Below, one piece after another: positions 18,691 to 32,792 of a stretch of 59,194 nucleotides of DNA. The notes beneath the pieces are model-generated. The model was not told where the DNA came from. It saw nothing but the letters and a program-made list of their open reading frames with translations, and made no database searches. The DNA lies in NCBI GenBank assembly GCA_964628855.1, contig CAZVMV010000007.1, positions 1 to 59,194 of the forward strand, given 5' to 3'. This DNA comes from an uncultured Gammaproteobacteria bacterium (lineage in GTDB: Bacteria > Patescibacteriota > Patescibacteriia > UBA10025 > JAHIVO01). The position numbers and the translations under genes were made by a program. Each line of letters begins with the position of its first letter. Position 1 is the first letter of the stretch.

Positions 18691-19410
18691 ATGGATATTC
18701 AAAATAACCAACCGATGACCAAGACCCAGCGGCGCGAGCTTCGTCGCCAGGAAATTATGGCCAGACGCGGCGGACAAGAGACTAAGTCAAAAATGACGAT
18801 TTGGGTAGTTAGTATTTCGATAATTTTGGTAATCGGCGGACTTATTGCCTGGGCAATATTTGGCGGCGGCCCATCGACGCCAATTACCGGCGCTAGCGAT
18901 GCGCCAGTTCTGGGTAGCGCAACTGCCAAAGTGGTTGTGATGGAATTTTCCGATCTTTCATGTCCGGCATGCGCCACGGCGGCGCCAATAGTAAGGCAAT
19001 TAGCTGATTTTTACAAAGAAAAGATAAAGATTGAGTTCAGGAGTTTTGATATCGGGCACCAGTGGTCAGGGAAGTCGCTGGAAGCGGGTCGTTGCGCCCA
19101 AGCCCAGGGAAAATTTTGGGAATTTTCTGATAAGGCCTTCGCCAGCCAGGGGGACTGGGAGACTGCCGACAATGCTATTGACCTGTTCAAATCTTATGCA
19201 AAGGATGCAGGCGTAAATGCAGACCAGTTTAATTCCTGTCTGGATTCTGGACAGATGGCCTCTGCCATCCAGGACGACATGAAGCTCGGGCGTAACAAAG
19301 GTGTAAATTCCACCCCAACTTTTTTTATCAATGACCAGAAATTTGTCGGAGTGCAGACCCTGGATGAGTTCAAGAAAAACATAGACGCAGAGATCGCAAA
19401 AACAAATTAA
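18691..19410 (+). CDS. Membrane-anchored DsbA-family thioredoxin-fold oxidoreductase
   Basis: N-terminal TM, EFSDLSCPAC active site, GVNSTPTFFIN cis-Pro loop. Confidence 0.9.
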   Translation: MDIQNNQPMTKTQRRELRRQEIMARRGGQETKSKMTIWVVSISIILVIGGLIAWAIFGGGPSTPITGASDAPVLGSATAKVVVMEFSDLSCPACATAAPIVRQLADFYKEKIKIEFRSFDIGHQWSGKSLEAGRCAQAQGKFWEFSDKAFASQGDWETADNAIDLFKSYAKDAGVNADQFNSCLDSGQMASAIQDDMKLGRNKGVNSTPTFFINDQKFVGVQTLDEFKKNIDAEIAKTN

Positions 19411-20007: not shown

Positions 20008-20952
20008 ATGAAACTAATCGTTTCTATACCAGCTTATAACGAAGAAAAGTCCATAGCCAATGTCATCCAAGGCATCCCATCTTCTCTGACTGGAGTTACA
20101 GAAATGAGAATTGTCGTTTTTGACGATGGATCGAAAGATCATACGGCGGAAATGGCGCGATCGGCCGGCGCTGAGGTAGTGAGCCGAAAAGAAAACCGGG
20201 GGTTGAGTCACACATTTCAAGACATTGTGCATGAAGCACTTAGACGCCAGGCTGATGTTTTGGTTAATATTGATGCTGATGGGCAGTTTAATCCAAATGA
20301 TATTTTTAAGTTAATCCAGCCGATCATGGAACAGAAAGCTGACGTTGTTACGGCCTCCCGTTTCATAGATGAAAGGTTGGTGCCGGCCATGCCTGCAATG
20401 AAGCGTTGGGGAAATGCCACCGTGGCCAGGCTAATTAGTTTCCTGACTGGCCAGAAATTTTATGATGTTTCTTGCGGTTACCGGGCATATTCGCGTGAGG
20501 CCCTTTTAAATTTGAATTTATTTAGTAAATATACTTATACCCATGAAACATTCCTGAACATCGCTTTTAAGGGCTTGCGAATCTGGGAGGTGCCAGTAGT
20601 GGTGCGCGGCGAGAGGGAATTCGGAAAATCAAAAGTAGCCCATAACCTGTGGCGATATGGCTATAATATGGTAAATACAATCTTCCGAACCATGCTGGAT
20701 TATAAGCCTTTGAAGTTTTTCGGGTGGGGGGGCAGCCTAGTTTTCTTGTTAGGTATAGCGTTTGATCTGTTTGTACTCATTCACTGGATTGCCAGGGGCG
20801 AGATAACGCCTTATAAGAGTTTCGGATTTGGCGGCCTCGCTTTGAACATTTTTGGATTATTGCTCCTCATAGTAGGTTTACTGGCTGACATGATAAATCG
20901 GGTGCGGTTAAGCCAAGAGAGAATCCTATACCTAATAAAAAAACAGCGTTGA
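20008..20952 (+). CDS. Glycosyltransferase family 2 (polyprenol-phosphate glycosyltransferase-like) with two C-terminal TMs
   Basis: IPAYNEEKSI, VVFDDGSKD, NIDADGQF, DVSCGYRAYSRE. Confidence 0.92.
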   Translation: MKLIVSIPAYNEEKSIANVIQGIPSSLTGVTEMRIVVFDDGSKDHTAEMARSAGAEVVSRKENRGLSHTFQDIVHEALRRQADVLVNIDADGQFNPNDIFKLIQPIMEQKADVVTASRFIDERLVPAMPAMKRWGNATVARLISFLTGQKFYDVSCGYRAYSREALLNLNLFSKYTYTHETFLNIAFKGLRIWEVPVVVRGEREFGKSKVAHNLWRYGYNMVNTIFRTMLDYKPLKFFGWGGSLVFLLGIAFDLFVLIHWIARGEITPYKSFGFGGLALNIFGLLLLIVGLLADMINRVRLSQERILYLIKKQR

Positions 20953-20987
20953 AGAGCGGGATTGTTTAACTGTTGTGAGATTTTCAC

Positions 20988-22082
20988 ATGATATATTTTG
21001 TCATTGGCACTAAAGCCCAAATAATCAAGATGGCCCCAGTCATTATGGCCGTAAAAACGGCTCGTTTTGGTTTTCGGGTAATATTTACTGGCCAACATAA
21101 AGAAACCGTGGATGAACTGATGGGGGATTTTGGTCTACCAAGCCCGGATTTTACATTATATGATGGACCTGATATCACGCGTACAGCTCAGATCGTGCCG
21201 TGGATGTTGAAAGTGATGTGGACCTTCTTTCGAATGAGAAAGCGCATCCTAGTAAAAAACGAACGCAATATTTTTTTAGTCCATGGTGATACAATCTCGA
21301 CGGTTTTGGGCGCAATCATGGGAAGATTGACCAGACAGACTGTCGGGCACCTAGAGTCTGGCTTGCGATCATTCAGGCTGTTCGATCCTTTTCCTGAGGA
21401 GTTGCAGCGGCTAGCAACCTTTGCACTGTCGCAGGTTTATTTTTGTCCTGGGCAATGGGCGCTCAATAATCTGAAAAAATATTCCGGTGAAAAAATTGAT
21501 ATCCGATACAACACCCTGATTGATTCTTTGCGTTTAGCAATGATGCGGGAAGACCTTAAAGCGCCGGACTTCCCCCAAAAGCCATTTTGCCTTGTTTCTA
21601 TCCACCGGTATGAAAATATCTCTCGCCGAAATTCTTTATTAAAAGTAATCAAACTGGTGGAAAAGATTGCTAATAGTTTCTTGGTTGTTTTTGTCCTGCA
21701 CCCTCCGACGATTGTCCATCTGAAAAAGTTTGGCTTATTGTCACGTCTAGAAAATAATCATAATATCGAGCTTCGGCCGAGATATTCTTATGTTCGTTTC
21801 ATTAAATTACTTGCCCAAAGTGAGTTTATTGTCACTGATGGGGGCAGTAACCAAGAAGAGTGTTCCTACCTCGGCCACCCATGTTTATTGATGCGGGCTG
21901 TTACCGAGCGGGTCGAAGGATTGAATAAGAACGTTGTGGTCTCCGATTTCCAATTGGGTACAGTTGATAGTTTTATTGCGCATTATTCTGATTATCGCCG
22001 CCCTGCTGTACAGGCTGCTGTATCTCCCAGTGAATTGGTATTGGAATATCTACGGAATAATAACTATACGCACCCGACATGA
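20988..22082 (+). CDS. UDP-N-acetylglucosamine 2-epimerase family (WecB/MnaA)
   Basis: GTKAQIIKMAPV, TGQH, VHGDT, HLESGLRS..PFPEE, HRYEN, TDGGSNQEE. Confidence 0.88.
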   Translation: MIYFVIGTKAQIIKMAPVIMAVKTARFGFRVIFTGQHKETVDELMGDFGLPSPDFTLYDGPDITRTAQIVPWMLKVMWTFFRMRKRILVKNERNIFLVHGDTISTVLGAIMGRLTRQTVGHLESGLRSFRLFDPFPEELQRLATFALSQVYFCPGQWALNNLKKYSGEKIDIRYNTLIDSLRLAMMREDLKAPDFPQKPFCLVSIHRYENISRRNSLLKVIKLVEKIANSFLVVFVLHPPTIVHLKKFGLLSRLENNHNIELRPRYSYVRFIKLLAQSEFIVTDGGSNQEECSYLGHPCLLMRAVTERVEGLNKNVVVSDFQLGTVDSFIAHYSDYRRPAVQAAVSPSELVLEYLRNNNYTHPT

Positions 22083-23245
22083 GTAGTCATATAAAAATCT
22101 GCGTCATCGGTGCACATGGTACGCCCAATATTGGCGACCAGTCGATATTGGTTGGTTTGTTGAGTATATTGGGTGTGGGGAAAAAACCAAAAACCATAAA
22201 TGTCATATCTCGCCACCCTCGAGTAATAAGTCACATAATAGATGGCGCTGCTTCAGTGCCAGCTTCTTCTTTGTTTTACTTAAGGACTTTTATTGCTGTT
22301 GTAACTTGCGACGTATTTATACTCGGAGGTGGCGGAATAATACAGGATCAGACAAGCATAGCTAACCTATTGTATTATTCCTTTTATACTTTATTAGCAT
22401 CGGCCTTGAATAAAAAAATCATGGCAATTGGTATTGGGGTCGGGCCGTTCAGTCATGCCATGAGCCGTTGGATTGTCCGTTTTATGTTTTTTAGGATTAA
22501 AAAAATTTATGTGCGGGATAATTATTCCCAGGCGGAATTGAAGTCTATAGTTGGCGAGTCGAGGCAAGTCAATATTTCACCGGATTTAGCGTTTCTGGCG
22601 AAACCCGATGAAGATGCTCAACTTCATATCACGAAGCCACAAGAAAAAAATCGATTTAGACTCGGGATAAACCTGAGGCCCTGGCTATTCAAAACCGGCG
22701 GCTTAATGCCCGTGTCCGGGAAAATACATAACCAGAGCTGGGAAAAAAGTTTTTCCGAGCTGATGGGCGAATTATCCGCTCAGCTTATAGGTTTCGGAAG
22801 GGAACATCCAACCACCCTGGTATTTTTACCTTTTGAGCCTGTCCAAGATAACCTGGCATTTTCAATACTATCGCGTAATTTACCGGAAGGCGTTTTTACT
22901 GTTGAACGTCCTGAATGCAAGAATCCCTCCGAAATGTTTAAGCTTTATGGAACTCTGGATGCGTGTGTCGGCATGAGATTCCATTGCTTGATTTTTTCTA
23001 TAATTTCACACAAACCTTTCATCGCACTAAATTATAATGCTAAGGTAAAGGCTCTGGTCCATGAGGTGGATATGGAGAATTTTTCTTTCACTTTGGACAA
23101 ATCGTCCTTGTCACACGTCGGCGATTCATTGCGCATGATTTACAGTGAATACAGGGACTTGCAACAGCGCCTTCTTGGGTATAGCCAACAATACCGATCC
23201 AGGCTTCTTGAAATTGGGTCTGATTTGGATAATGAATTAAAATAG
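22079..23245 (+). CDS. Polysaccharide pyruvyl transferase (CsaB-like)
   Basis: GAHGTPNIGDQSIL, GGGGIIQD.TS, GIGVGP, YVRD..S, PDLAF, GMRFHCLIFS. Confidence 0.88.
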   Translation: MSSHIKICVIGAHGTPNIGDQSILVGLLSILGVGKKPKTINVISRHPRVISHIIDGAASVPASSLFYLRTFIAVVTCDVFILGGGGIIQDQTSIANLLYYSFYTLLASALNKKIMAIGIGVGPFSHAMSRWIVRFMFFRIKKIYVRDNYSQAELKSIVGESRQVNISPDLAFLAKPDEDAQLHITKPQEKNRFRLGINLRPWLFKTGGLMPVSGKIHNQSWEKSFSELMGELSAQLIGFGREHPTTLVFLPFEPVQDNLAFSILSRNLPEGVFTVERPECKNPSEMFKLYGTLDACVGMRFHCLIFSIISHKPFIALNYNAKVKALVHEVDMENFSFTLDKSSLSHVGDSLRMIYSEYRDLQQRLLGYSQQYRSRLLEIGSDLDNELK

Positions 23246-23246
23246 T

Positions 23247-24194
23247 ATGAGGAAAAAAGCACTTGCCCAATATTTATTCCTGATAATCACCATTGTTTTC
23301 GTCATATATCTATTTAGGGGCAATTCCGATAAGCTTAAGAAGCTATTGGAAATATCCATTCCTAATTTGTTGTTGATCAGCCTGTTGGCGATCATCACCT
23401 TTGTCGGCAACGGAATAAAAAATGTGCTTTTACTCATACCATTCAAGGTACGGCTTAAGTTCACGGAATGGTTTGGTCTGTCGGTCATTAACAGTTTTTG
23501 GAATTACCTGCCATTTCAGGGCGGCCTTGTCGCCAAAGGTTTATACCTGAAACGCCAGCATAATTTCGCCTATACAGAATATGCCTCGACGGTAAGCGCC
23601 AGTTATTTGATCACTTTCTTTACTTTTGGCCTTGTCGGCTGTATCGGATTGGCGCTGGCGTTTTTCGCGAACCATGCTTTTGCACTTATGCCAGTATTGA
23701 TTTATGGCTTGCTGGTAATATCGCCACTTATCGGGGTATTGATTATTTACAGAGGCGCATCCTGGAATGTGAAGTTTCCGAGACTGGCCCGCTTTTTTAC
23801 TGGCGCTCGAATAATTTTTAAGGATAAAAAAACGGTTGCTAAGCTCATTCTACTGGATGTCGGCATGTTGGCTTTGTTTGTTGTACGGTTAGCTGCTTGT
23901 TTCTGGGCAACTGGACTACACGTGGATTTTTATTTCATCTTGCTCGTGACACCTATTGCCCTTTTGTCGATATTCGTCACCATCACTCCGGGCGGATTGG
24001 TTGTTCGTGAAGCGCTGATCGGCTTATTTGCCTTCTGGTACAGTCTGAATGTCAGTGATATCGTAGTCGCATCGTTATTGGACAGGGCAGTGCTGATGGT
24101 TTGGGTTTTTGTACTTGGGATAATATTCAATTATTACCTGTCGAAAAAAACTATCCTAGATCAGCCGAAAACTTCACAGTCGCTTCCTGTGTAG
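23247..24194 (+). CDS. Lysylphosphatidylglycerol synthase TM-region / UPF0104 flippase-like membrane protein
   Basis: About 8 TMs, NYLPFQGG, ITPGGLVVREA, LLDRAV. Confidence 0.8.
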   Translation: MRKKALAQYLFLIITIVFVIYLFRGNSDKLKKLLEISIPNLLLISLLAIITFVGNGIKNVLLLIPFKVRLKFTEWFGLSVINSFWNYLPFQGGLVAKGLYLKRQHNFAYTEYASTVSASYLITFFTFGLVGCIGLALAFFANHAFALMPVLIYGLLVISPLIGVLIIYRGASWNVKFPRLARFFTGARIIFKDKKTVAKLILLDVGMLALFVVRLAACFWATGLHVDFYFILLVTPIALLSIFVTITPGGLVVREALIGLFAFWYSLNVSDIVVASLLDRAVLMVWVFVLGIIFNYYLSKKTILDQPKTSQSLPV

Positions 24195-24274
24195 GAGTTA
24201 TTCATGGTTTCTCTTTAGTATTTAGAGAAAATAAACATGCCAGGCGCGGTATACCTGCCGGCTTTTTATTAGTA

Positions 24275-24970
24275 TCATATTTCAGGATTATCTTTTCGAA
24301 AAAATGCGGCTAAACACAAAACGATGCAGAGTGCGTTGATCAATAGCGTGGAGGCGATGAGTACTTGCCAGGTACCGGCATGGTTGAAGATGCCCGGTTT
24401 CGCATATGTCAGCCGCCGCATTAGCACTTGCCAGGCGTTTGAAGTTGAATATTGCCAATCAAGCACGAGCCGATGAGCGTCGTCTGTTTGTCCATTCAGG
24501 GTCAGCCTACCACCGTCATATCGATCTGGCCCGATGGTGTGGAACGAAAGTACATGCTCGCCGGTTGTTCCTTGTATCTGGTATATATAAGTTTTATGCG
24601 CCGAATCGGCGATAGGTTCAAAAACCCACTCCAATACCGTAGCAGATCCGGTGATGCGGGTAGAAATTTTATCACTGCGAAGCGGAGATTGTAATTCAGA
24701 ATCAAAGATTGAAACCGTGAGGTTGATCGGGTTTTGATTTTTAATATATAGGATAGTTTTCCCTAAATTATTTTGACTAGCCTTGATTTCCTGACGGAAT
24801 ATGAATTGTTGATTGGCGGCGATATTAATAAATTCCGGATCGCGGAAATAGATAACGCTGGCGCCTTCCTGGTCAATGTATTGAGTATTTGAATACTGCT
24901 TGGCGATGAGCGCTATGCCGGCACCTGTCAGGATAAATGATATGGCGCAAAATAGTAATATTTTTTTCAT
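24275..24970 (-). CDS. Hypothetical exported protein with N- and C-terminal hydrophobic segments
   Basis: Start moved to MKKILLFC at 24970 (ATGA overlap with the upstream gene's stop). Confidence 0.7.
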   Translation of the reverse strand: MKKILLFCAISFILTGAGIALIAKQYSNTQYIDQEGASVIYFRDPEFINIAANQQFIFRQEIKASQNNLGKTILYIKNQNPINLTVSIFDSELQSPLRSDKISTRITGSATVLEWVFEPIADSAHKTYIYQIQGTTGEHVLSFHTIGPDRYDGGRLTLNGQTDDAHRLVLDWQYSTSNAWQVLMRRLTYAKPGIFNHAGTWQVLIASTLLINALCIVLCLAAFFRKDNPEI

Positions 24971-26508
24971 AAATATAATTTTGGCCACATAGTTATAGCC
25001 AAAGCCAAAGCATTGGCGGTGAAGCCGTAAAGAACAAAAACTACATACCCGAATTTTTTCCATTTATATGGTAACATGCCGGTCAGACCGATCACCCAAG
25101 CGAGACAAAGTGGGAGGAGTACCGGAACGTAATATCGACCATCAATAGGGAAGCGCGCCTGACCATCCCGAAATAAGCGCTTGGTAAACAAGTAAAGGTA
25201 AAAGACTTCAAGCAATGCGACAGCAACAAGAAAAAGTAAGAATATGGCCCGTTGTTCCTGGCTGAGCGATTTTTTTCTAACAGCTATCAAGACGATTAAG
25301 CTGACTGCCGCTAGGATCCACAGTCCAGTCCCAGTAATAAAAAACCACATTGGCAGCATCATTTCTGTAGCAAAGCCAAAAGCAAAATTGAAGCTGGCAA
25401 AGGCATACATCCAGCGTTGGATGTAGAGACTGATGGCAAGTCGAGCAGTAACAATCGGTTGGTCGGCAGCTGTTACGGTCGCATGAGAACTGATGATGCC
25501 GTTGTGGTTCACGATTGCCCAAATATACCACCAGCCGGCGATGAGGATCGTGACCAATACACATACGGCAATGTAAATAATTGCAGTTTTAATTTTTACA
25601 TCCTTTTTGTAAAACAGGTGATAAAGTATGGGGATAATTATTAAAAATGGCACTACGATGAACTGGGGCTTGGTCAACATCCCCAAGCCGAAAACAATAC
25701 CCAGATAAATTATTTGACGCATCTCCAGCCGTTCGATTAGTTTGACTAAGTAATACAGAGACAGCGTGGTCAGGACAAAAAGGAGGGCGTCATTATTTAT
25801 CCCGGCCGACAAATGGCTAAAGACTGGCAACAGTCCGATGGTCAGAAGGACAGTAAGGCTCAAATTGAAATTTTTCGTTAATCGACGGGTGACGATGAAG
25901 CAGAGCCAATATCCCAACAAAAACAAGAATGAGGAGAATGCCCGCATGGCGTATTGGCGTATCAGGATGTCCTGGTTATAAAAGATGGCATAGGGGATGG
26001 ATTCCAGGACGTAATACAATGGCGGATAGATTGCGGCCGAATTCTGATAACTGTCTTTTGACGGCAGTTTGTAGTATATGTCAGTAAGTCCCGATGGGGC
26101 ATCGGACCTCACCAGTGGTTGACGAGGCAGATTTCGATATTGCTGGGCTAAGGTGTCATAGCGAAAAAAAGTTTCATTGAAACGCTGGTGGATCATCCGA
26201 AGTTCCTTGTTGTGTGCATTCATTAGCCGAGTGACGTCCGTAGCAATTTCTGAGGCGGCATATTCATGTGAGTATGACAGTGTCTTCGCCTCGAACGTTC
26301 CGGACTGGTTGGGCAATTTTTTTTCCTCGACTAGGAATTGGGTATACGAGAAATGCGCCGGCTCGTCATGGCCCTGCCAAGCGGGGACAGAAAACACGAA
26401 AAGCAATTGTTTTACCGCCAGGAAAACAAAAACAACTACTAGAGTAATTGTTTGGAATTTTTTTTTATCCGGCGGATTGTGCATTGACGGTTGATTTATT
26501 AAGTCCAT
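24967..26508 (-). CDS. GT-C-type integral membrane glycosyltransferase (DUF2142 / PMT-ArnT-like)
   Basis: PAWQGHDEPAHF.Y, YPPLYY, INNDAL..LT, GLGMLTKP; many TMs. Confidence 0.8.
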   Translation of the reverse strand: MDLINQPSMHNPPDKKKFQTITLVVVFVFLAVKQLLFVFSVPAWQGHDEPAHFSYTQFLVEEKKLPNQSGTFEAKTLSYSHEYAASEIATDVTRLMNAHNKELRMIHQRFNETFFRYDTLAQQYRNLPRQPLVRSDAPSGLTDIYYKLPSKDSYQNSAAIYPPLYYVLESIPYAIFYNQDILIRQYAMRAFSSFLFLLGYWLCFIVTRRLTKNFNLSLTVLLTIGLLPVFSHLSAGINNDALLFVLTTLSLYYLVKLIERLEMRQIIYLGIVFGLGMLTKPQFIVVPFLIIIPILYHLFYKKDVKIKTAIIYIAVCVLVTILIAGWWYIWAIVNHNGIISSHATVTAADQPIVTARLAISLYIQRWMYAFASFNFAFGFATEMMLPMWFFITGTGLWILAAVSLIVLIAVRKKSLSQEQRAIFLLFLVAVALLEVFYLYLFTKRLFRDGQARFPIDGRYYVPVLLPLCLAWVIGLTGMLPYKWKKFGYVVFVLYGFTANALALAITMWPKLYL

Positions 26509-26599
26509 TATAACCTTTTTTCGCAGTTTGTTCTAATTGTTAAGCTTTACAAAACCAAAAAAATATGTTACAATTAAGACATAATATCAAAATAAAATT

Positions 26600-26995
26600 A
26601 TGGCTGAAGGACGGATTATCCTGGCGCCCATCAAATACATTGCCATTGAAGTAATATGGGATGTCATCTATTTCCCGATCTGGTGGTACACCAAGGGTCT
26701 TATTCGTGTGGCTAAATACTGCACGACTAGCGCTTCGATCCATATCAACCGCCGGTTAGCGCTCGGCGTGTGGTTACGCAGCATGTTCAAGCCGATGTAC
26801 GGGGATTATACCAAAGAAGGCCGGATCATCAGTTTTTTCATGCGCATTGTTGTCTTATTCTATAAACTGGTGCTGACCGTGGTTTGGCTGGCTGTGTTGT
26901 GCCTGGTATTCGTTTTATGGGTCGTCCTGCCAATCGTGGTTATCTATTACATACTCTACCAAGTTTTCGGAGTATCTTTTATTTTATTTAAATAG
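26600..26995 (+). CDS. Small membrane protein coupled to the Clp ATPase
   Basis: DVIYFPIWWYTKG, MFKPMYGDY..GRIISFFMR, C-terminal TM hairpin; 5 nt upstream of the Clp gene. Confidence 0.8.
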   Translation: MAEGRIILAPIKYIAIEVIWDVIYFPIWWYTKGLIRVAKYCTTSASIHINRRLALGVWLRSMFKPMYGDYTKEGRIISFFMRIVVLFYKLVLTVVWLAVLCLVFVLWVVLPIVVIYYILYQVFGVSFILFK

Positions 26996-27000
26996 ATTCA

Positions 27001-29763
27001 ATGGCAAAGCCAGCCGGAAAAAATTTCGATTATTTAATCTGTCCGATTTGCCAAGGAACAGGGCAGGATTCGGGTAGTACCTGTAAACGCTGCAATGGCC
27101 GTGGGTCGTATGCCTGGCTGGAAGGGACGATATTGTATTGGGGTAGGACAGTGGACAGTTTGCATCTGTTTGAAGAAGAGATGGAACGGGCTGTCAAAGG
27201 GATCCTGAACGGATTTTTAATATTTTTTGGAATCGTCGGCATTGTGGCCTTAATCATGGCTTTGATGAACTTCAAGGATACAGAACATATCTGGAATATT
27301 TTCAAGGAGCAGAACAGGTTGATGGCCATTTTTTCCATTACATTATTGACAGACCTGTATACCTATTACCGTCTGCAAAGAGAGTCTTTTATTGACAAGG
27401 CAGTAAAATCAAAACCTTTCGATACGCTATTAACCGAAGAAGAGTCGTCTGTCTTGTTTGAAAAAGCTGCGGCAACAAACAAAAAACTGCAAGTTGAGGC
27501 GTCAATCACGTATTCCGTCCCGGCACACCGTTCTGTGGGACAAGCATGGCAGCTGGCCAAGCGTTTGGGTCACGCGAGTACTGAGCCGATCCATTTGTTG
27601 GCGACTCTGATCTCCTATCCACAAACTGGGGAAGTTTTGGCCAGACTTGGCGTTGACGGGAAATTGCTGGTAGAAAAGATAACGCGTAATGCCGCAAAAT
27701 TTCCCAGGGTACAAAAAGCATCTGCTGTAATTTCTCCTTCATTACGCGGCGTGCTTTTGGCAGCGTACGCCGAGGCCTATAATGGTCGCCAAGAGCATGT
27801 CGAGGTACAACACGTACTGGTTTCCATCATAAAAAATAATGAGATGTGCCGCGACATTTTTTATGACATGGAGATCGAGCAGGACCAGATCGTCAATGCT
27901 GTCGAGTGGCTGAATATCCAATCGCGCTTGTCGGAGGGTTACCGCCATTGGCGAAGTAAGGCTGCATATAAATCAAAAGGAGTGATGAACCGTGCCATGA
28001 CTTCTCAGGCAACACCGCTATTGGACCGGTTCAGTCACGATCTGACCAGTCTGGCGCGGCAGGGAGGTTTGGCGCCATGCATCGGACGCGACCGTGAAAT
28101 AGAGTCGGTGCTACGTATTATGGAAGGCGGCAAGAATGTCATTTTGTCCGGTTTTCCGGGTGTGGGTAAAACAAGCATCATTGAAGGTATTGCCGCACTC
28201 ATGGCAGCTGAAGACGTACCGGAAGTCCTGCGGGATCACCGGTTGATCAGCCTGTCGGTGGCGTCATTGGTTGGTGCTGCCGGACGGCAGGGTGAACTGG
28301 AGGGTCTGATCATGCAGTTGATAAATGAAATTGTCAGATCTGGCAACATCGTACTCTATATTGATAATATCCAGAATATGGTCGGCGTTTCGACCGAAGG
28401 TGCACAAAATTTGGATATTGCCGATATCATGGCCAACGCGCTTTCTAAGGGCTTGTTTTATGCCATCGCCACCACCACCCCGCTTGATTACCGGCGGTAT
28501 ATAGAGCCGAGCGGATCCTTGAATTCAGTATTCCAGAAAATCGAAGTAGCTGAACCTGACGTGAACGGGTCTATCTTGATCCTGGAGGGCAAGTCCGGTT
28601 CCGTCGAGGTGAAAAATCAAATATTTTTTTCGTATGCAGCCATTGAGCGGATCGTAAAATTGGCTGACAGATTTATCCATGACCGGTTCCAGCCGGAAAA
28701 ATCCATCGCCATCCTGGATGAAGTGGCTGTTTACGTGCGCAGGAAGAAAGGGAAGGGCAGCATGGTCACCGGAGAAGACGTGGCAGAGATTGTCTCCACC
28801 AAGACAAACGTGCCGGTCACGAAATTGACCGAGAAAGAGACGGAGAAGCTCTTGAATCTGGAAGACAAGATACATGAGAGGATGGTGAATCAAGAAGAGG
28901 CGGTGAAGGCTGTATCAACGGCATTACGCCGCGCACGCGCGGAATTGCGGGATATCCGCCGGCCAATTGTCAACCTGCTTTTCCTGGGACCGACCGGTGT
29001 CGGTAAAACCGAGCTGGCCAAAACCGTGGCGGAAGTTTATTTCGGCTCAGAAAAAAACATGATCCGTCTCGACATGTCGGAATATCAGGAACAGTCTTCA
29101 TTAGCCAGAATGATCGGCGCACCGCCGGGTTACAGCGGTTCGTCAGAGGGCGGTTATCTGACAGAAGCGGTCAGGCGCCAGCCGTTTTCACTGATATTGC
29201 TCGATGAAATCGAAAAAGCCCATCCCGACATCCTGAATATTTTCCTGCAGGTCATGGACGATGGCCGTCTGACAGATACGTTGGGCAGGACAATAGATTT
29301 TACGAACGTAATTTTGATCGCTACCTCCAATGCCGGGACAGCACTTATCCAGAAAAGGATGCAGGAAAACGCTACCCTGGCTGCCATAAAGGATGAGTTG
29401 ATGAATGAGGAGCTGAAACCATATTTTCGGCCGGAGTTTCTCAATCGTTTTGATAACATTATCGTCTTCAAACCTTTGTCATTTGAACATATCGTCCAAA
29501 TCGTCGGATTGATGCTGAAGCAGGTCAATCAGAGATTGGGCGCAAAAGGCATCCGACTGGAAGCGACTGACGAAGCCAAACAGGAGCTTGCTCAACAGGG
29601 ATTTGACCCGATCTTCGGTGCCCGTCCTCTTCGCCGTGCCATTCAGGATACAGTGGATAACGCCCTGGCTAATTATTTGCTCGAAGGCAAACTCGGCCGC
29701 CGTGACGTGGCCGTATTGGAAGCTGGCGGGAGAATTTCCGTCCGGCCAGCGCCGCCCCTGTAA
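27001..29763 (+). CDS. Atypical Clp/Hsp100 AAA+ ATPase with N-terminal CxxCxGxG Zn finger and two TMs
   Basis: CPICQGTG and CKRCNGRG, two hydrophobic helices, Clp-N repeats, NBD1 GFPGVGKT / LYIDNIQ, NBD2 GPTGVGKT / LLDEIEKAHP, RPEFLNRFD, GARPLRR. Confidence 0.92.
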   Translation: MAKPAGKNFDYLICPICQGTGQDSGSTCKRCNGRGSYAWLEGTILYWGRTVDSLHLFEEEMERAVKGILNGFLIFFGIVGIVALIMALMNFKDTEHIWNIFKEQNRLMAIFSITLLTDLYTYYRLQRESFIDKAVKSKPFDTLLTEEESSVLFEKAAATNKKLQVEASITYSVPAHRSVGQAWQLAKRLGHASTEPIHLLATLISYPQTGEVLARLGVDGKLLVEKITRNAAKFPRVQKASAVISPSLRGVLLAAYAEAYNGRQEHVEVQHVLVSIIKNNEMCRDIFYDMEIEQDQIVNAVEWLNIQSRLSEGYRHWRSKAAYKSKGVMNRAMTSQATPLLDRFSHDLTSLARQGGLAPCIGRDREIESVLRIMEGGKNVILSGFPGVGKTSIIEGIAALMAAEDVPEVLRDHRLISLSVASLVGAAGRQGELEGLIMQLINEIVRSGNIVLYIDNIQNMVGVSTEGAQNLDIADIMANALSKGLFYAIATTTPLDYRRYIEPSGSLNSVFQKIEVAEPDVNGSILILEGKSGSVEVKNQIFFSYAAIERIVKLADRFIHDRFQPEKSIAILDEVAVYVRRKKGKGSMVTGEDVAEIVSTKTNVPVTKLTEKETEKLLNLEDKIHERMVNQEEAVKAVSTALRRARAELRDIRRPIVNLLFLGPTGVGKTELAKTVAEVYFGSEKNMIRLDMSEYQEQSSLARMIGAPPGYSGSSEGGYLTEAVRRQPFSLILLDEIEKAHPDILNIFLQVMDDGRLTDTLGRTIDFTNVILIATSNAGTALIQKRMQENATLAAIKDELMNEELKPYFRPEFLNRFDNIIVFKPLSFEHIVQIVGLMLKQVNQRLGAKGIRLEATDEAKQELAQQGFDPIFGARPLRRAIQDTVDNALANYLLEGKLGRRDVAVLEAGGRISVRPAPPL

Positions 29764-29765
29764 AC

Positions 29766-29802
29766 AAAAAAATCCGCTCTGGTGATAAGAGCGTCTTTTT
29801 TT
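29766..29802. terminator. Bidirectional terminator between the Clp gene and the pilin gene
   Basis: A-run, CGCTCT-GGTGATA-AGAGCG, T-run. Confidence 0.75.
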
Positions 29803-29813
29803 ATTTGGAGAAA

Positions 29814-30215
29814 TTAGGTCGTGACGTTGTTAACCCGCGCTACCACGAATGTCACTAATGCCCAGGACAGCATGATAATGACCATGCCGATAATGGCCGA
29901 AGTCAGGATTGTTTTGGCTTTTTTTACCCGCTCTTCATTTCCTGCGGCCGTCATCCACATGAAGCCCCCGAGCATAATCATGACCAAAGCAACCAGACTC
30001 ATGAAACCAAGGACCCACTGGATTGTTCGGATGGTGATGTCGACTGGACTCTTGTCGGGCAGCTTGAGCTCGTTTTTGATCGTGCCTTGGGGGTCAAATT
30101 GGATGCTTTCGACAGCAAAGGCAGAGTGCCCAAGCATAACCAGTACTGGCAGTATTGCCGCCACGATGATTGCCATGGAAAAGATTTTTTTATTCTTCAA
30201 GCCGGAGTATTTCAT
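29814..30215 (-). CDS. CPR TrbC/VirB2-like pilin
   Basis: Signal ending AFA, two TM helices flanking GGFMWMTAAGNEERVKKAK..I..AIIG. Confidence 0.85.
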   Translation of the reverse strand: MKYSGLKNKKIFSMAIIVAAILPVLVMLGHSAFAVESIQFDPQGTIKNELKLPDKSPVDITIRTIQWVLGFMSLVALVMIMLGGFMWMTAAGNEERVKKAKTILTSAIIGMVIIMLSWALVTFVVARVNNVTT

Positions 30216-30292: not shown

Positions 30293-30345
30293 GGAGCGAT
30301 TGAACGTTGACAATTGAATACAATTTTATCGAAAGGAGATTCGGC

Positions 30346-31545
30346 ATGAAACGCGAACCATTTGGCGGTGGGCGGAAAAGAACTGTCCGGCTGTCAAAAC
30401 AGAATAAGTTGGTGGAAGCACGCATTGGTTTGGCCGGCAGTCCGGTCGGAGTAATCACCGAGGGTGGATTGGCCGGCATGTTGGTCCACCCTTATTGGGG
30501 GCCTGCCCAGGTTGAAGGCATGGCGTCCAGCCATGGGTACCGTTTGGCGCGCGACCTCTATCTTGCCCTGAGGAAAGTCGGGCACATGCTGTCTACCTAC
30601 AATGAGTCCGGCGTCCTCAATGAGAAAGAAGCGATATATCGTTCGCTGGATGCGGCCTGGGAGCTGCATGATCTGTTGCTCGATGTGCGTGTGGCCACGG
30701 TTGATGCCCTGGAAACGCGGATCCGTTCGACGGCCAGGAAAATTTTTGAAGCAGTGGGAAACCGTCCCAATGACCCGATCAAGAGGGCTATCCATGATGC
30801 CGCCGTTACGCTGAACGAAGTGTATGACGGGCGTAAGCGGGTCAACCCTACAGTGAAACTGACCCAGCTCTTAGCTATCCGGCGGCGGCTTTACCGTCGG
30901 CTGATGGTCGTCCAGGCGATTGAGCCAAACTTGCACCGTTGGCGAGAGTCTTTTCTCGCCATGGTCGATGAGGCGGAACGGTTGTTCGGCGAAGTGACGG
31001 CATTCTTGGCGCCACGCATCGAGATGTTGTCAAAACTCAAACCCGGCAGCCGGCTGTCCATTGCTTCGCGCCGGAGACTGACGGTGCGCCTCGGTCATTA
31101 TGCTGATGAACTGGAACGACTGGACATCAATCCTTTTCGCCGGCCCTGCCGACGGATGGCGAATGAACTGCGCAAAGGCTCGGAGTATTTTTCCGCCGGT
31201 CGTTATCACGCTGCCGCGACTGTTCTGCAGCGGACACTGGAATCGCTCAAGCTGCGCGGCGTGAGGACAGACCTGGAAAAGTTCATCAACTACCTGACGG
31301 TACTGATGTACCATCCGTGTCGTACCCTGTCAAAGCGTGAACGGGGGATAATCATCAATGGTCTAATGAACATCCGCGAAAGACTCGGCCGTGTCGATGA
31401 GTACCGGTTTGTGCATCCGGTATGTCTGCAGGCAAGGGAGAATTTGCGGTTGGCTGCGGCAGTGTTCAAAGTGAATGCAGATAACCCGATTAGCGGGCTG
31501 TGGCATTTCAGAGAAGCGCTGAAAGTAGTGGCCCAACCGTTATAA
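30346..31545 (+). CDS. Hypothetical basic, helix-rich protein (~400 aa)
   Basis: AAGGAG SD before the ATG at 30346; long ORF; no recognised motif. Confidence 0.78.
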   Translation: MKREPFGGGRKRTVRLSKQNKLVEARIGLAGSPVGVITEGGLAGMLVHPYWGPAQVEGMASSHGYRLARDLYLALRKVGHMLSTYNESGVLNEKEAIYRSLDAAWELHDLLLDVRVATVDALETRIRSTARKIFEAVGNRPNDPIKRAIHDAAVTLNEVYDGRKRVNPTVKLTQLLAIRRRLYRRLMVVQAIEPNLHRWRESFLAMVDEAERLFGEVTAFLAPRIEMLSKLKPGSRLSIASRRRLTVRLGHYADELERLDINPFRRPCRRMANELRKGSEYFSAGRYHAAATVLQRTLESLKLRGVRTDLEKFINYLTVLMYHPCRTLSKRERGIIINGLMNIRERLGRVDEYRFVHPVCLQARENLRLAAAVFKVNADNPISGLWHFREALKVVAQPL

Positions 31546-31568
31546 CATCAATTCCAGAGGAGGATTAC

Positions 31569-32792
31569 ATGAAGTATCCGCGTTTGATCAGGCGAATGCT
31601 CCTCTGGTGCCGATTGGTATTTGAGGGGCTGAGCCGGCGCAAAGAAAAAGCGCTTTACGCTTTTTTCCAGCTACCCGTGGTGGCGCCCCTGTTCCGTTAT
31701 ATCACGCCAAATGATCTGTGTTATATGCGCATGTTTGCTGGCGTGATCCTGATTTTCCTGTACTTGCGGGGCTATTATGGCAGCTTGCTGCCGATATTTG
31801 CCGCCGCGGTAGTGCTGGATTTCATCGACGGACCATTAGCCCGTTTTTCCAAACGTGTCACCGAAGAGGGCAAGGTATTGGATGCCAATGCCGATAAGGT
31901 GCTGGTACTTATACCGCTGCTGCTCATTGGCTTTGACCGTCTGAACGGGCAGCTGGTAACCTGGCTGCTGGTAGTCGAACTGTTATTGTTTGTCGTGGCG
32001 AACTACCTCAAACCTATCCTACGCGGGCGGTATGGCATTCCGCTCGTGCCAGGTTCAAATGGTTTTGGGCAGATCAAAATGACGATTGAATCGGTCGCTA
32101 TCGGGATCGTGCTAGTTGATCCGTCCAGTACGGTTGTAGTTTTATGGGGACAGTGGCTGATTTTTTTGAGTATATGTTTCGGCATCCTGAGTTTCCTGCG
32201 CCATCTTTACCGCATGGAGCATGGGAATCGGCTGGATCCCCGCAAACGTCTGATAACCGTCCCTAATCTCATCACTCTGGCATCCCTATTCCTATTCATA
32301 CCGGCCGGGTTTGCCATTGCTAATGAGCAATGGGTAGATGCGGCTGTCTATATTGCCATCGTATTTATATCGGACGGGATCGACGGTCCGATCGCCAGGC
32401 GTTTGCACCAAGAGACATATTTCGGGGCAGCCCTGGACCCGTTCAGGGACTTCCTGGCTCGCAGTTTTCTGACCGGGTGGATGTTGGCCTTGTTGCCGCC
32501 AGTGGCCAAAGCGCTCCTGACCGCAGTGGTAATTGTGGAGATTTTTTCCGCAGTGATGAACGTCCGTACCTCGGTCCAGGTACGGCAATTGTCCGGGGTG
32601 ACTAAAGCAGGGAAGCGCCGCGGATTTGTCCATTACATATCCATCGGCGCATTGTATCTACATGTGGCTGGAGCGTACCACCTGCCATTAGTCGCAATCC
32701 TAGTAATTTTGGCGGCCATGTTGTCAGCTTCGTTGGTCGGACTGATATCGTACGTCAATAACCGCTCGCGTTTACTGGAGGCAAAACGCTAG
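31569..32792 (+). CDS. Tandem double-domain CDP-alcohol phosphatidyltransferase
   Basis: Two complete DxxDGxxAR...GxxxDxxxD motifs (DFIDGPLAR...GKVLDANAD; DGIDGPIAR...GAALDPFRD); GAGGAGG SD. Confidence 0.88.
   Translation: MKYPRLIRRMLLWCRLVFEGLSRRKEKALYAFFQLPVVAPLFRYITPNDLCYMRMFAGVILIFLYLRGYYGSLLPIFAAAVVLDFIDGPLARFSKRVTEEGKVLDANADKVLVLIPLLLIGFDRLNGQLVTWLLVVELLLFVVANYLKPILRGRYGIPLVPGSNGFGQIKMTIESVAIGIVLVDPSSTVVVLWGQWLIFLSICFGILSFLRHLYRMEHGNRLDPRKRLITVPNLITLASLFLFIPAGFAIANEQWVDAAVYIAIVFISDGIDGPIARRLHQETYFGAALDPFRDFLARSFLTGWMLALLPPVAKALLTAVVIVEIFSAVMNVRTSVQVRQLSGVTKAGKRRGFVHYISIGALYLHVAGAYHLPLVAILVILAAMLSASLVGLISYVNNRSRLLEAKR

Follow-up and report, generated by a model that had tools for sequence, protein, structure and literature searches.

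A 59,194 nucleotide stretch of DNA (contig CAZVMV010000007.1 of assembly GCA_964628855.1, positions 1 to 59,194 of the forward strand), referred to here as the window, carries two adjacent genes whose products probably form an undescribed membrane machine of the Clp/Hsp100 type. The first of these (26600..26995, + strand) encodes a 131 aa helical membrane protein without a Pfam family, called here the partner, and its open reading frame (ORF) stops 5 nt before the ATG of the second gene (27001..29763, +), on the same strand, which encodes a membrane-anchored, Clp/Hsp100-like double-AAA+ ATPase of 920 aa. We consider it fairly probable that the two make up a ClpP-independent and DnaK-independent membrane AAA+ machine that would act from the cytoplasmic face on a client embedded in, or close to, the membrane, and, as far as named records go, such a two-protein machine would be specific to the Patescibacteria. 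The gene pair has the signals of an operon, with a single promoter-like site 5' of the partner gene (26546..26574, +; TTTACA-17-TACAAT with a TG extension, 10/12, a consensus match only), the 5 nt gap, and a bidirectional terminator-like hairpin (29775..29793) after the ATPase gene, between it and a convergent pilin gene. The assembly that holds the locus comprises 18 contigs, totals 984 kb, and has a completeness of 79%.

The features of a class-I Clp/Hsp100 protein are present in the ATPase, these being a Clp_N domain, a first nucleotide-binding domain (NBD1 or D1) with AAA_lid_9 (residues 523-602, E 6.5e-11), a second (NBD2 or D2) of the AAA_2 family (654-820, E 6e-62), and ClpB_D2-small (826-900, E 8e-25), and the fold matches those of ClpC and ClpB. 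Motifs were read by residue-level alignment with the ClpC of Bacillus subtilis, and their states were taken from an alignment of 114 homologous ATPase sequences, from a second, independent set of 68 species-representative orthologues, and from 18 members of the wider clade. In D1 (28024..28755, +) the Walker A sequence GFPGVGKTS is kept. The Walker B, however, reads YIDN (within LYIDN) where ClpC has FIDE, with Asn456 (28366-28368) in place of the catalytic Glu; the pore loop is AGRQGELE (within AAGRQGELEG) against KYRGEFE, the aromatic residue being gone; and the Arg fingers are LNSVFQ against LERRFQ, both Arg having been replaced. The Walker B DE, the Arg fingers, and the pore Tyr that mark a competent D1 are all lacking in this ATPase. 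The same is seen in its relatives: the Walker A Lys of D1 is kept in 111/114 homologues, the Walker B Glu is present in none of them (N in 73, D in 31, G in 6, S in 2, and H in 2) and in none of the 68 orthologues, the pore-loop aromatic is found in 2/114 and 0/68, and the Arg-finger pair is mostly S-V among the 114. The pore loop AAGRQGELEG is itself conserved in sequence within the subfamily, as a non-aromatic loop. Since the catalytic Glu and the Arg fingers are absent, D1 would bind nucleotide without hydrolysing it.

The motifs of D2, which with its small domain lies at 28858..29700 (+), are all canonical (GPTGVGKT, LLDEIEKAH, the pore loop GAPPGYSGS, TSN, NRFD, and GARPLRR). Walker A, Walker B, sensor 1, the Arg finger, and sensor 2 are present in all 111 alignable homologues and in 67-68 of the 68 orthologues, the Arg finger R816 being found in 111/111 and 68/68. 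The D2 pore aromatic, which the window protein keeps as Tyr711, is present in 64/114 homologues, 23/68 orthologues, and 0/18 members of the wider clade.

There is no M-domain between the rings. The linker is 56 aa, as it is in 111 homologues, against 115 aa in ClpC and 179 aa in ClpB-type proteins, and 55 residues of ClpC (407-461) are without counterpart. The loop KYVGFN, by which ClpC docks to ClpP, aligns to a gap, and the segment that follows TSN is of 23 residues in 68/68 orthologues, against 35-46 residues, including GF, in ClpC. Both the M-domain and the ClpP loop are absent in 68/68 orthologues.

At its N-terminus the ATPase has a zinc-ribbon module (residues 14-35; 27040..27105, +), in which there are two DnaJ-type motifs, CPICQGTG (14-21) and CKRCNGRG (28-35), both of them exact CxxCxGxG sequences. 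The best Pfam family in this region is DnaJ_CXXCXGXG (PF00684; E 1.4e-4), which scores 22.5 bits against a cut-off of 32.7 and is matched over 26 of its 65 model positions, or roughly half the CR domain. Two such repeats are predicted to suffice for one zinc site. The full set of four Cys is found in 85/114 homologues and 62/68 orthologues, and the finger is missing in some members of the ATPase family and in all of the fused forms described below. A profile of this region also matches the zinc fingers of DnaJ-sized (~370 aa) ORFs in about 55 genomes.

Two transmembrane (TM) helices follow. TM1 (residues ~67-90; 27199..27270, +) is unambiguous as a hydropathy prediction, with a 19-residue Kyte-Doolittle mean of up to 2.76, and falls within helix 53-90 of the AlphaFold2 model, for which the predicted local distance difference test (pLDDT) is 85.6 over the whole ATPase. 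TM2 (~106-125; 27316..27375, +), with the conserved motif SLLTDLYxYYR, is modelled as helix 106-131 (pLDDT 80-89), and the equivalent segment is strongly hydrophobic in the sister subfamilies. Because TM1 is strong, TM2 is modelled as a helix, and its counterparts in sister subfamilies are hydrophobic, a two-helix TM hairpin is accepted here, with the zinc ribbon and the AAA+ rings both predicted to be cytoplasmic. Asp118 of TM2 is present in 82/114 homologues and 37/68 orthologues; an intramembrane salt bridge between it and Arg82 of the partner was considered and dropped, Arg82 being invariant even in fusions that have no hairpin.

The Clp_N domain begins approximately 45 residues after the TM anchor and is made up of two four-helix repeats (27517..27960, +); the Pfam match is to residues 184-227 (E 1.2e-7), and the alignment to the N-domain of ClpC takes in both repeats. 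Between Clp_N and D1 (27880-28020, residues ~294-340) there is a family-specific extra helix, followed by a conserved loop of low model confidence in which W303, KPKGxMNRAMT, and T334 are invariant, the linker being ~12 residues longer than that of ClpC. An earlier note on this DNA, made from its letters alone, had read the two CxxCxGxG repeats, two TM helices, Clp-N repeats, a LYIDN Walker B in NBD1 beside a canonical NBD2, a short linker with no coiled coil, and no IGF/LGF loop after the TSN motif, and had judged the protein to fit neither a protease partner nor a DnaK-dependent disaggregase. This description is upheld, the docking loop and the M-domain both being absent, and NBD1 is more degenerate than was claimed, having also lost the pore Tyr and both Arg fingers.

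For the partner, nothing credible was found in Pfam or NCBIfam, even at E <= 10, and there is no PADLOC match. Its AlphaFold2 model is all-helical (pLDDT 89.5), and a fold search with this model against the PDB gave no match below E = 1. The family comprises 98 clusters by a word-indexed search and 643 representative clusters by a full HMMER search. Its invariant residues are P26, W28, W29, Y30, and G33 (FPxWWYxxG) and P65, M66, G74, S78, and R82 (KPMYGDY..GRxISFxxR), and after this conserved loop there are two or three TM helices by hydropathy, the fused proteins included.

The partner gene precedes the ATPase gene in 8/8 contigs of homologues at 43-70% identity. In a phylum sample of 401 evenly drawn Patescibacteria genomes, the zinc-ribbon/hairpin module of the ATPase is present in 41, and in 38 of these the partner is immediately upstream on the same strand; within the window's own class the module is found in 21 of 25 genomes. 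Partner-specific peptide patterns run over 185,579 species genomes identified 562 loci, and in the best 80 of these, for which linkage was counted, a Clp-like gene is directly downstream of the partner in 74, with gaps mostly of -17 to +12 nt. The partner profile is more widespread in the phylum sample than the hairpin module, being present in 118/401 genomes (~29% of sampled species), and in 26-29 of these 118 it falls within a longer reading frame, of 800-910 aa. Eighteen loci with the profile inside long ORFs were fetched, and in 18/18 an Hsp100-like ATPase of 813-910 aa either contains the partner domain as a fusion or follows it directly, its D2 Walker A being GPTGVGKT or a one-residue variant of this sequence. 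The fusion was verified in loci L012-L017, and in candidate division WWE3 fusion is the usual arrangement. Besides the partner, nothing is conserved in the surroundings of the gene pair.

Genes that are fused in one lineage and closely coupled in an operon in another are classically taken to act jointly. That the partner and the ATPase are fused in some lineages and tightly paired in others would suggest that they act as one unit, and these same couplings would point to a physical complex between them. Judged by gene content, the partner is obligate for the ATPase. The earlier note had reported the small membrane protein encoded 5 nt upstream, so that the gene pair stands as described there; the role of the partner was underestimated. 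At some loci the partner has other company: in L052 (3471-4412) and L055 (3393-4451; Jacksonbacteria record) there is a RuvA-like gene 3-4 nt after the partner, in place of the ATPase, a YrdC/Sua5-like gene follows it in L094, and a convergent glycosyltransferase-like gene is found in L071.

A search of 5.8 billion proteins gave ~110 clusters of full-length ATPase homologues, 42-87% identical and ~890-935 aa in length. All of those that are named are from Patescibacteria, e.g. Kerfeldbacteria, Buchananbacteria, and Parcubacteria, and they are annotated merely as 'AAA family ATPase' or 'Clp protease ATP-binding subunit'. Many public records that hold the gene pair have titles from outside the candidate phyla radiation (CPR), these being 'uncultured Gammaproteobacteria bacterium' (binchicken, SRP co-assemblies), Acutalibacteraceae, Lysobacteraceae, and Udaeobacter; such titles are probably placeholder, submitter, or wrong labels. 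In full-text literature searches no description of the ATPase or partner family was found, and a 2026 preprint on a CPR pilus system mentions neither Clp nor AAA+.

The Hsp100 phylogeny that had been proposed as a check was built by maximum likelihood from 54 sequences, and in it the 45 partner-linked ATPases, whether of the zinc-finger, other split, or fused types, all fall into one clade (Shimodaira-Hasegawa-like approximate likelihood ratio test, SH-aLRT, 100; stem 0.45), apart from the ClpA and ClpB of E. coli, Firmicutes ClpC, ClpB-type proteins, and the genome's own ClpC. Conservation of the altered Walker B and of the gene pair across the CPR, also put forward as a check, is likewise borne out by the counts given above; the canonical DE that the earlier note would have taken as a refutation is seen in none of the 114 homologues or 68 orthologues. 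In the 18 members of the wider clade D2 is invariant, there is no ClpP loop and no M-domain, the D1 pore is never aromatic, and the D1 RR pair is absent in all; the D1 Walker B D-E is still present in some basal fused members. Against the NCBIfam models the ATPase scores 661 bits for ClpB (TIGR03346, cut-off 1232), 564 for ClpA (TIGR02639, cut-off 993), 513.5 for ClpV/TssH (TIGR03345, cut-off 884.95), and 522 and 537 for ClpG/ClpK (NF033607 / NF033606, cut-off 1900). No type VI secretion system (T6SS) genes are present among the Pfam-scanned ORFs at 17.5-35.5 kb of the window, the genome as a whole not having been searched for them. The window carries the features that define the clade, with a FPxWWY...PMYGDY...GRxISFxxR partner upstream, an intact D2, no ClpP loop, and no M-domain, and the clade would be a distinct, membrane-embedded branch of the Hsp100 proteins with a new partner family.

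Elsewhere in the genome there is a ClpC of canonical type, 831 aa long, in which IYRGEFE, FIDELH, and LERRFQ are intact and the M-domain and IGF loop are present. ClpP and DnaJ are encoded as well, together with FtsH (815 bits, where the cut-off is 600) and, as recognized by motif, a DnaK-like protein. Neither a ClpB-grade gene nor a ClpX-type gene was found on any contig of the 79%-complete assembly, nor was a further AAA_2 protein besides ClpC and this ATPase; a weak AAA_2 match at C1:9426-9692 was considered as a ClpX and rejected, being a RarA-type ATPase. The presence of ClpB was scored by a ClpB equivalog search in the 401 phylum genomes. A ClpB-grade gene (1217-1296 bits) is present in 20/24 class relatives, of which 16 also carry the module, and 16 of the 21 module-positive class genomes also hold a ClpB-grade gene. 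In the phylum as a whole ClpB is found in 34/118 partner-positive and 57/283 partner-negative genomes, which is no negative association. The module is not a substitute for ClpB or ClpC. Since ClpC, ClpP, FtsH, and, in most class relatives, ClpB co-exist with it, a distinct function is implied, and these ~1 Mb genomes often retain three Hsp100 paralogues.

In the mechanism proposed, the ATPase would form hexamers as its relatives do, its N-terminal two-TM hairpin tethering it to the cytoplasmic side of the membrane, with the small zinc ribbon in the cytoplasm ahead of the hairpin. The D1-D2 core superposes on subunits of the ClpC and ClpB hexamers (TM-score 0.81-0.86, root-mean-square deviation ~4 Å). 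Because the anchor is N-terminal and Clp_N comes after it, the N-domain/D1 face of the ring would be toward the membrane, so that the geometry would resemble FtsH rather than PTEX HSP101 or other export motors. Degenerate rings act as assembly rings in other double-ring AAA+ proteins, and D1 may likewise be a nucleotide-holding assembly or scaffold ring, with D2 as the sole motor. Such a machine would not feed ClpP, the docking loop being absent, and would not couple to DnaK through an M-domain. The partner would probably be a stoichiometric membrane collar, formed by its helices with the 12 hairpin helices of the hexamer, and the whole would pull on or remodel a membrane-embedded or membrane-proximal client from the cytoplasmic side. 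What the sequences show directly is the architecture, the motif states and their conservation, the pairing and fusion of the genes, the monophyly of the clade, and the co-existence with ClpC, ClpP, FtsH, and, in relatives, ClpB; what we infer is the hexamer, the topology, the orientation of the ring, a physical complex of ATPase and partner, and what sort of work is done.

Some observations weigh against this two-protein machine. TM2 is moderately to marginally hydrophobic in this protein, and 4-5 of the 80 partner genes do not adjoin an ATPase gene. Of the 68 orthologues 45 lack the D2 pore aromatic, as do all 18 members of the wider clade, and the tree requires at least 6 changes at this position; in the orthologues P0005, P0008, P0016, and P0019, which share 67-70% identity and the same operon, V, M, H, or a shortened loop replaces the D2 Tyr. 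This aromatic is needed for threading in characterised Hsp100s. Canonical threading as the conserved activity is uncertain, and the loss of the aromatic in most orthologues would suggest that the conserved activity may not be polypeptide pulling.

The kind of work done by the machine can be read in more than one way. A narrower version of the model, held only tentatively, would have a canonical threading extractase, with the logic of Msp1 or of an FtsH without its protease, that grips tails or loops of membrane proteins, moves them from D1 to D2 by means of the D2 Tyr, and releases them unfolded into the cytoplasm, where they would refold or pass to FtsH or ClpCP. The window protein keeps GAPPGYSGS and every D2 catalytic residue, it has an N-terminal two-TM anchor as FtsH does, there are FtsH, ClpC, and ClpP in the genome, and its core superposes on substrate-bound subunits of ClpC and ClpB, all of which is consistent with threading; however, the close orthologues just mentioned have the same operon without the Tyr, as do most others, and with no aromatic loop in D1 the tail of a client must cross a passive ring before it can be gripped. 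The earlier note's membrane-tethered unfoldase or translocase is sustained as to the tether, is plausible as an unfoldase for this protein, where Tyr711 is kept, and is uncertain as one for the family. It is also conceivable, if rather doubtful, that the double ring no longer threads at all, D1 being a permanent nucleotide-bound scaffold and the work of D2 being passed via the hairpin, or the fused partner, to a ring of partner TM helices. Hydrolysis in D2 would then drive the partner TM assembly by a Torsin-like logic, in gating, in the assembly or disassembly of membrane complexes, or in envelope remodelling, and if this were true, the module would give the logic of Torsin and its cofactors a counterpart among prokaryotes. 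Such a remodeller would be supported by the erosion of both pore loops throughout the clade beside an unchanged D2 ATPase site, by the obligate partner, which other lineages carry as a fusion, and by a D1 pore loop that is conserved in the subfamily yet non-aromatic. The D2 Tyr is nonetheless retained here and in about a third of the orthologues, Clp_N, which is a substrate or adaptor platform in relatives, is retained as well, and the D2 Arg finger is intact, unlike that of Torsin, so that the partner need not complete the active site.

Three further readings depart from the proposed machine more widely. An export or pilus motor would unfold pilins or effectors and push them through a partner channel in the manner of PTEX/HSP101, and the partner is indeed a multi-helix membrane protein, with a T4SS_pilin gene convergent to the ATPase gene here and in the closest relatives and an N_methyl pilin-like gene in one distant locus. 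This is quite unlikely, given that the pilin is present in only 13/80 loci, those of close relatives, as a separate transcription unit, that its synteny reflects shared ancestry, that the anchor is on the N-terminal, substrate-entry side, where an export motor needs the D2 exit face at the membrane, and that the pore loops are eroded. Pilus handling, as suggested in the earlier note, is not borne out, and nothing points to the handling of host proteins that was suggested with it. A membrane-tethered general disaggregase, standing alone like ClpG/ClpK and replacing ClpB, with the zinc finger binding aggregates, would agree with the lack of a ClpB in the 79%-complete assembly, with the presence there of DnaK and DnaJ, and with the textbook role of the DnaJ-type zinc motif as a client-binding element in DnaJ. 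The co-occurrence of ClpB with the module in the class relatives, with no negative association phylum-wide, led to the rejection of a ClpB replacement; the scores against the ClpG/ClpK models, far under their cut-off, the lack of an M-domain, the eroded pore loops, and the loss of the zinc finger in some members and all fusions also make a disaggregase very unlikely. Least probable of all is an anti-phage defence module of AAA+ ATPase and membrane effector, for which the PADLOC models PDC-M37B and DolB do match D2, at 135 and 110 bits, a weak indication. These matches are confined to D2 (residues ~597-787) and there are none for the partner, and the module, which has a conserved syntenic position and is present in 21 of 25 genomes of its class, is vertically inherited, unlike mobile defence islands; a defence system was rejected on the ground that the PADLOC matches are at the level of D2 alone.

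The pilin gene 3' of the ATPase gene (29814..30215, - strand, convergent; PF18895, E 4e-11), which the earlier note had correctly seen, has a promoter that is a perfect (12/12) sigma-70-type match, TTGACA-18-TATAAT (30251-30222), and has the bidirectional terminator in common with the ATPase gene. Pilins of the closest relatives retain the motif GGFMWMTAAGNEE. A hidden Markov model of this pilin, searched over 84 loci, matched only 13, all of them close relatives, and a pilin-like convergent gene is absent from L008-L011. The flanking genes, among them TGT, a DsbA-like protein, and HisRS, are likewise syntenic, which would mean that the adjacency of the pilin is due to shared ancestry and not to a functional module, and the pilin was rejected as part of the module, having its own transcription unit and being limited to close relatives.

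An envelope/glycosylation block (20008-26508) separates the DsbA-like gene (18691-19410) from the partner gene and comprises a GT2 glycosyltransferase, a UDP-GlcNAc 2-epimerase, a polysaccharide pyruvyl transferase, an LPG_synthase_TM-like protein, and, on the minus strand, a DUF2142/PMT_2 membrane glycosyltransferase. In the relatives L006 and L007 the DsbA-like gene is 1.0-1.2 kb upstream of the partner, so that the block looks like a lineage-specific insertion. Beyond the pilin is an ORF of 412 aa (30307-31545, +) with a TTG start and no Pfam family, which lies within a region of G+C 0.51-0.53, compared with 0.42-0.47 in most of the preceding 20 kb. It overlaps by 46 nt the start of the next ORF (31500-32792, +), for a 430 aa protein in which two stretches match CDP-alcohol phosphatidyltransferase, so that the domain appears to have been duplicated in tandem.

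To our knowledge, the characterised bacterial Hsp100/Clp proteins are all soluble, and they feed ClpP, disaggregate, or recycle the T6SS. That genomes of ~1 Mb keep this module beside ClpC, ClpP, FtsH, and often ClpB argues for an important and distinct role, possibly tied to the unusual envelope or the episymbiotic lifestyle of the Patescibacteria. The clade is largely without the pore-loop aromatics thought essential to the Hsp100 mechanism. With two genes, the module is small and should be easy to express, so that experiments can directly address what an Hsp100 ring does at a membrane when its pore-loop tyrosines are absent.

The best sequence match among known systems is ClpC (521 bits to 3j3t), as in B. 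subtilis and Staphylococcus aureus, and ClpC1 in Mycobacterium, which is also the best match in fold and which shares the Clp_N domain, the two AAA+ modules, and D2-small. In ClpC a short coiled-coil M-domain serves adaptor and resting-state control. The ATPase described here is without this M-domain, the site of MecA and other adaptors, and without the VGF/IGF loop, its D1 appears dead, and a zinc ribbon and TM hairpin have been added. With ClpB/Hsp104 it shares a short region after TSN and the character of a ClpP-independent class-I Hsp100. It differs from them in lacking the long coiled-coil M-domain, which in ClpB serves coupling to DnaK/Hsp70, in its predicted membrane anchor, and in co-existing with a true ClpB in most class relatives. 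An M-domain is lacking in ClpA too, whose model is matched in one collinear stretch (residues 176-899); ClpA, however, has an IGL loop, an active D1, and the pore-loop Tyr, and is soluble, and the E. coli protein falls outside the clade. FtsH, by topological analogy, has the same N-terminal two-TM anchor and the AAA+ ring at the cytoplasmic face, with the entry side to the membrane. It differs in its single AAA module, its aromatic pore loop, and the M41 protease fused to it, and Pfam gave no Peptidase_M41 match on the ATPase.

N-terminal Cys4 zinc-binding domains are carried by ClpE and ClpX, and a Cys4 module at the N-terminus of a Clp ATPase is seen here also. The CxxCxGxG spelling is that of the DnaJ CR domain, in which four such repeats form two zinc centres, whereas the ATPase has two of the four, scores below the Pfam cut-off, and has TM helices after them. 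A comparison for a ring without pore-loop aromatics is Torsin with LAP1/LULL1, which is reported in the literature (e.g. PMC5425593, PMC4358337) to be an AAA+ protein of the Clp-D2 lineage that has no pore-loop aromatics and depends on a membrane partner. The likeness lies in the absence of the pore aromatics from most members of the clade and in the presence of a membrane partner here, while the differences are that Torsin is single-ringed, is in the lumen of the endoplasmic reticulum, and has no Arg finger of its own, whereas in this clade the Arg finger of D2 is invariant and there is a second ring, which would be dead.

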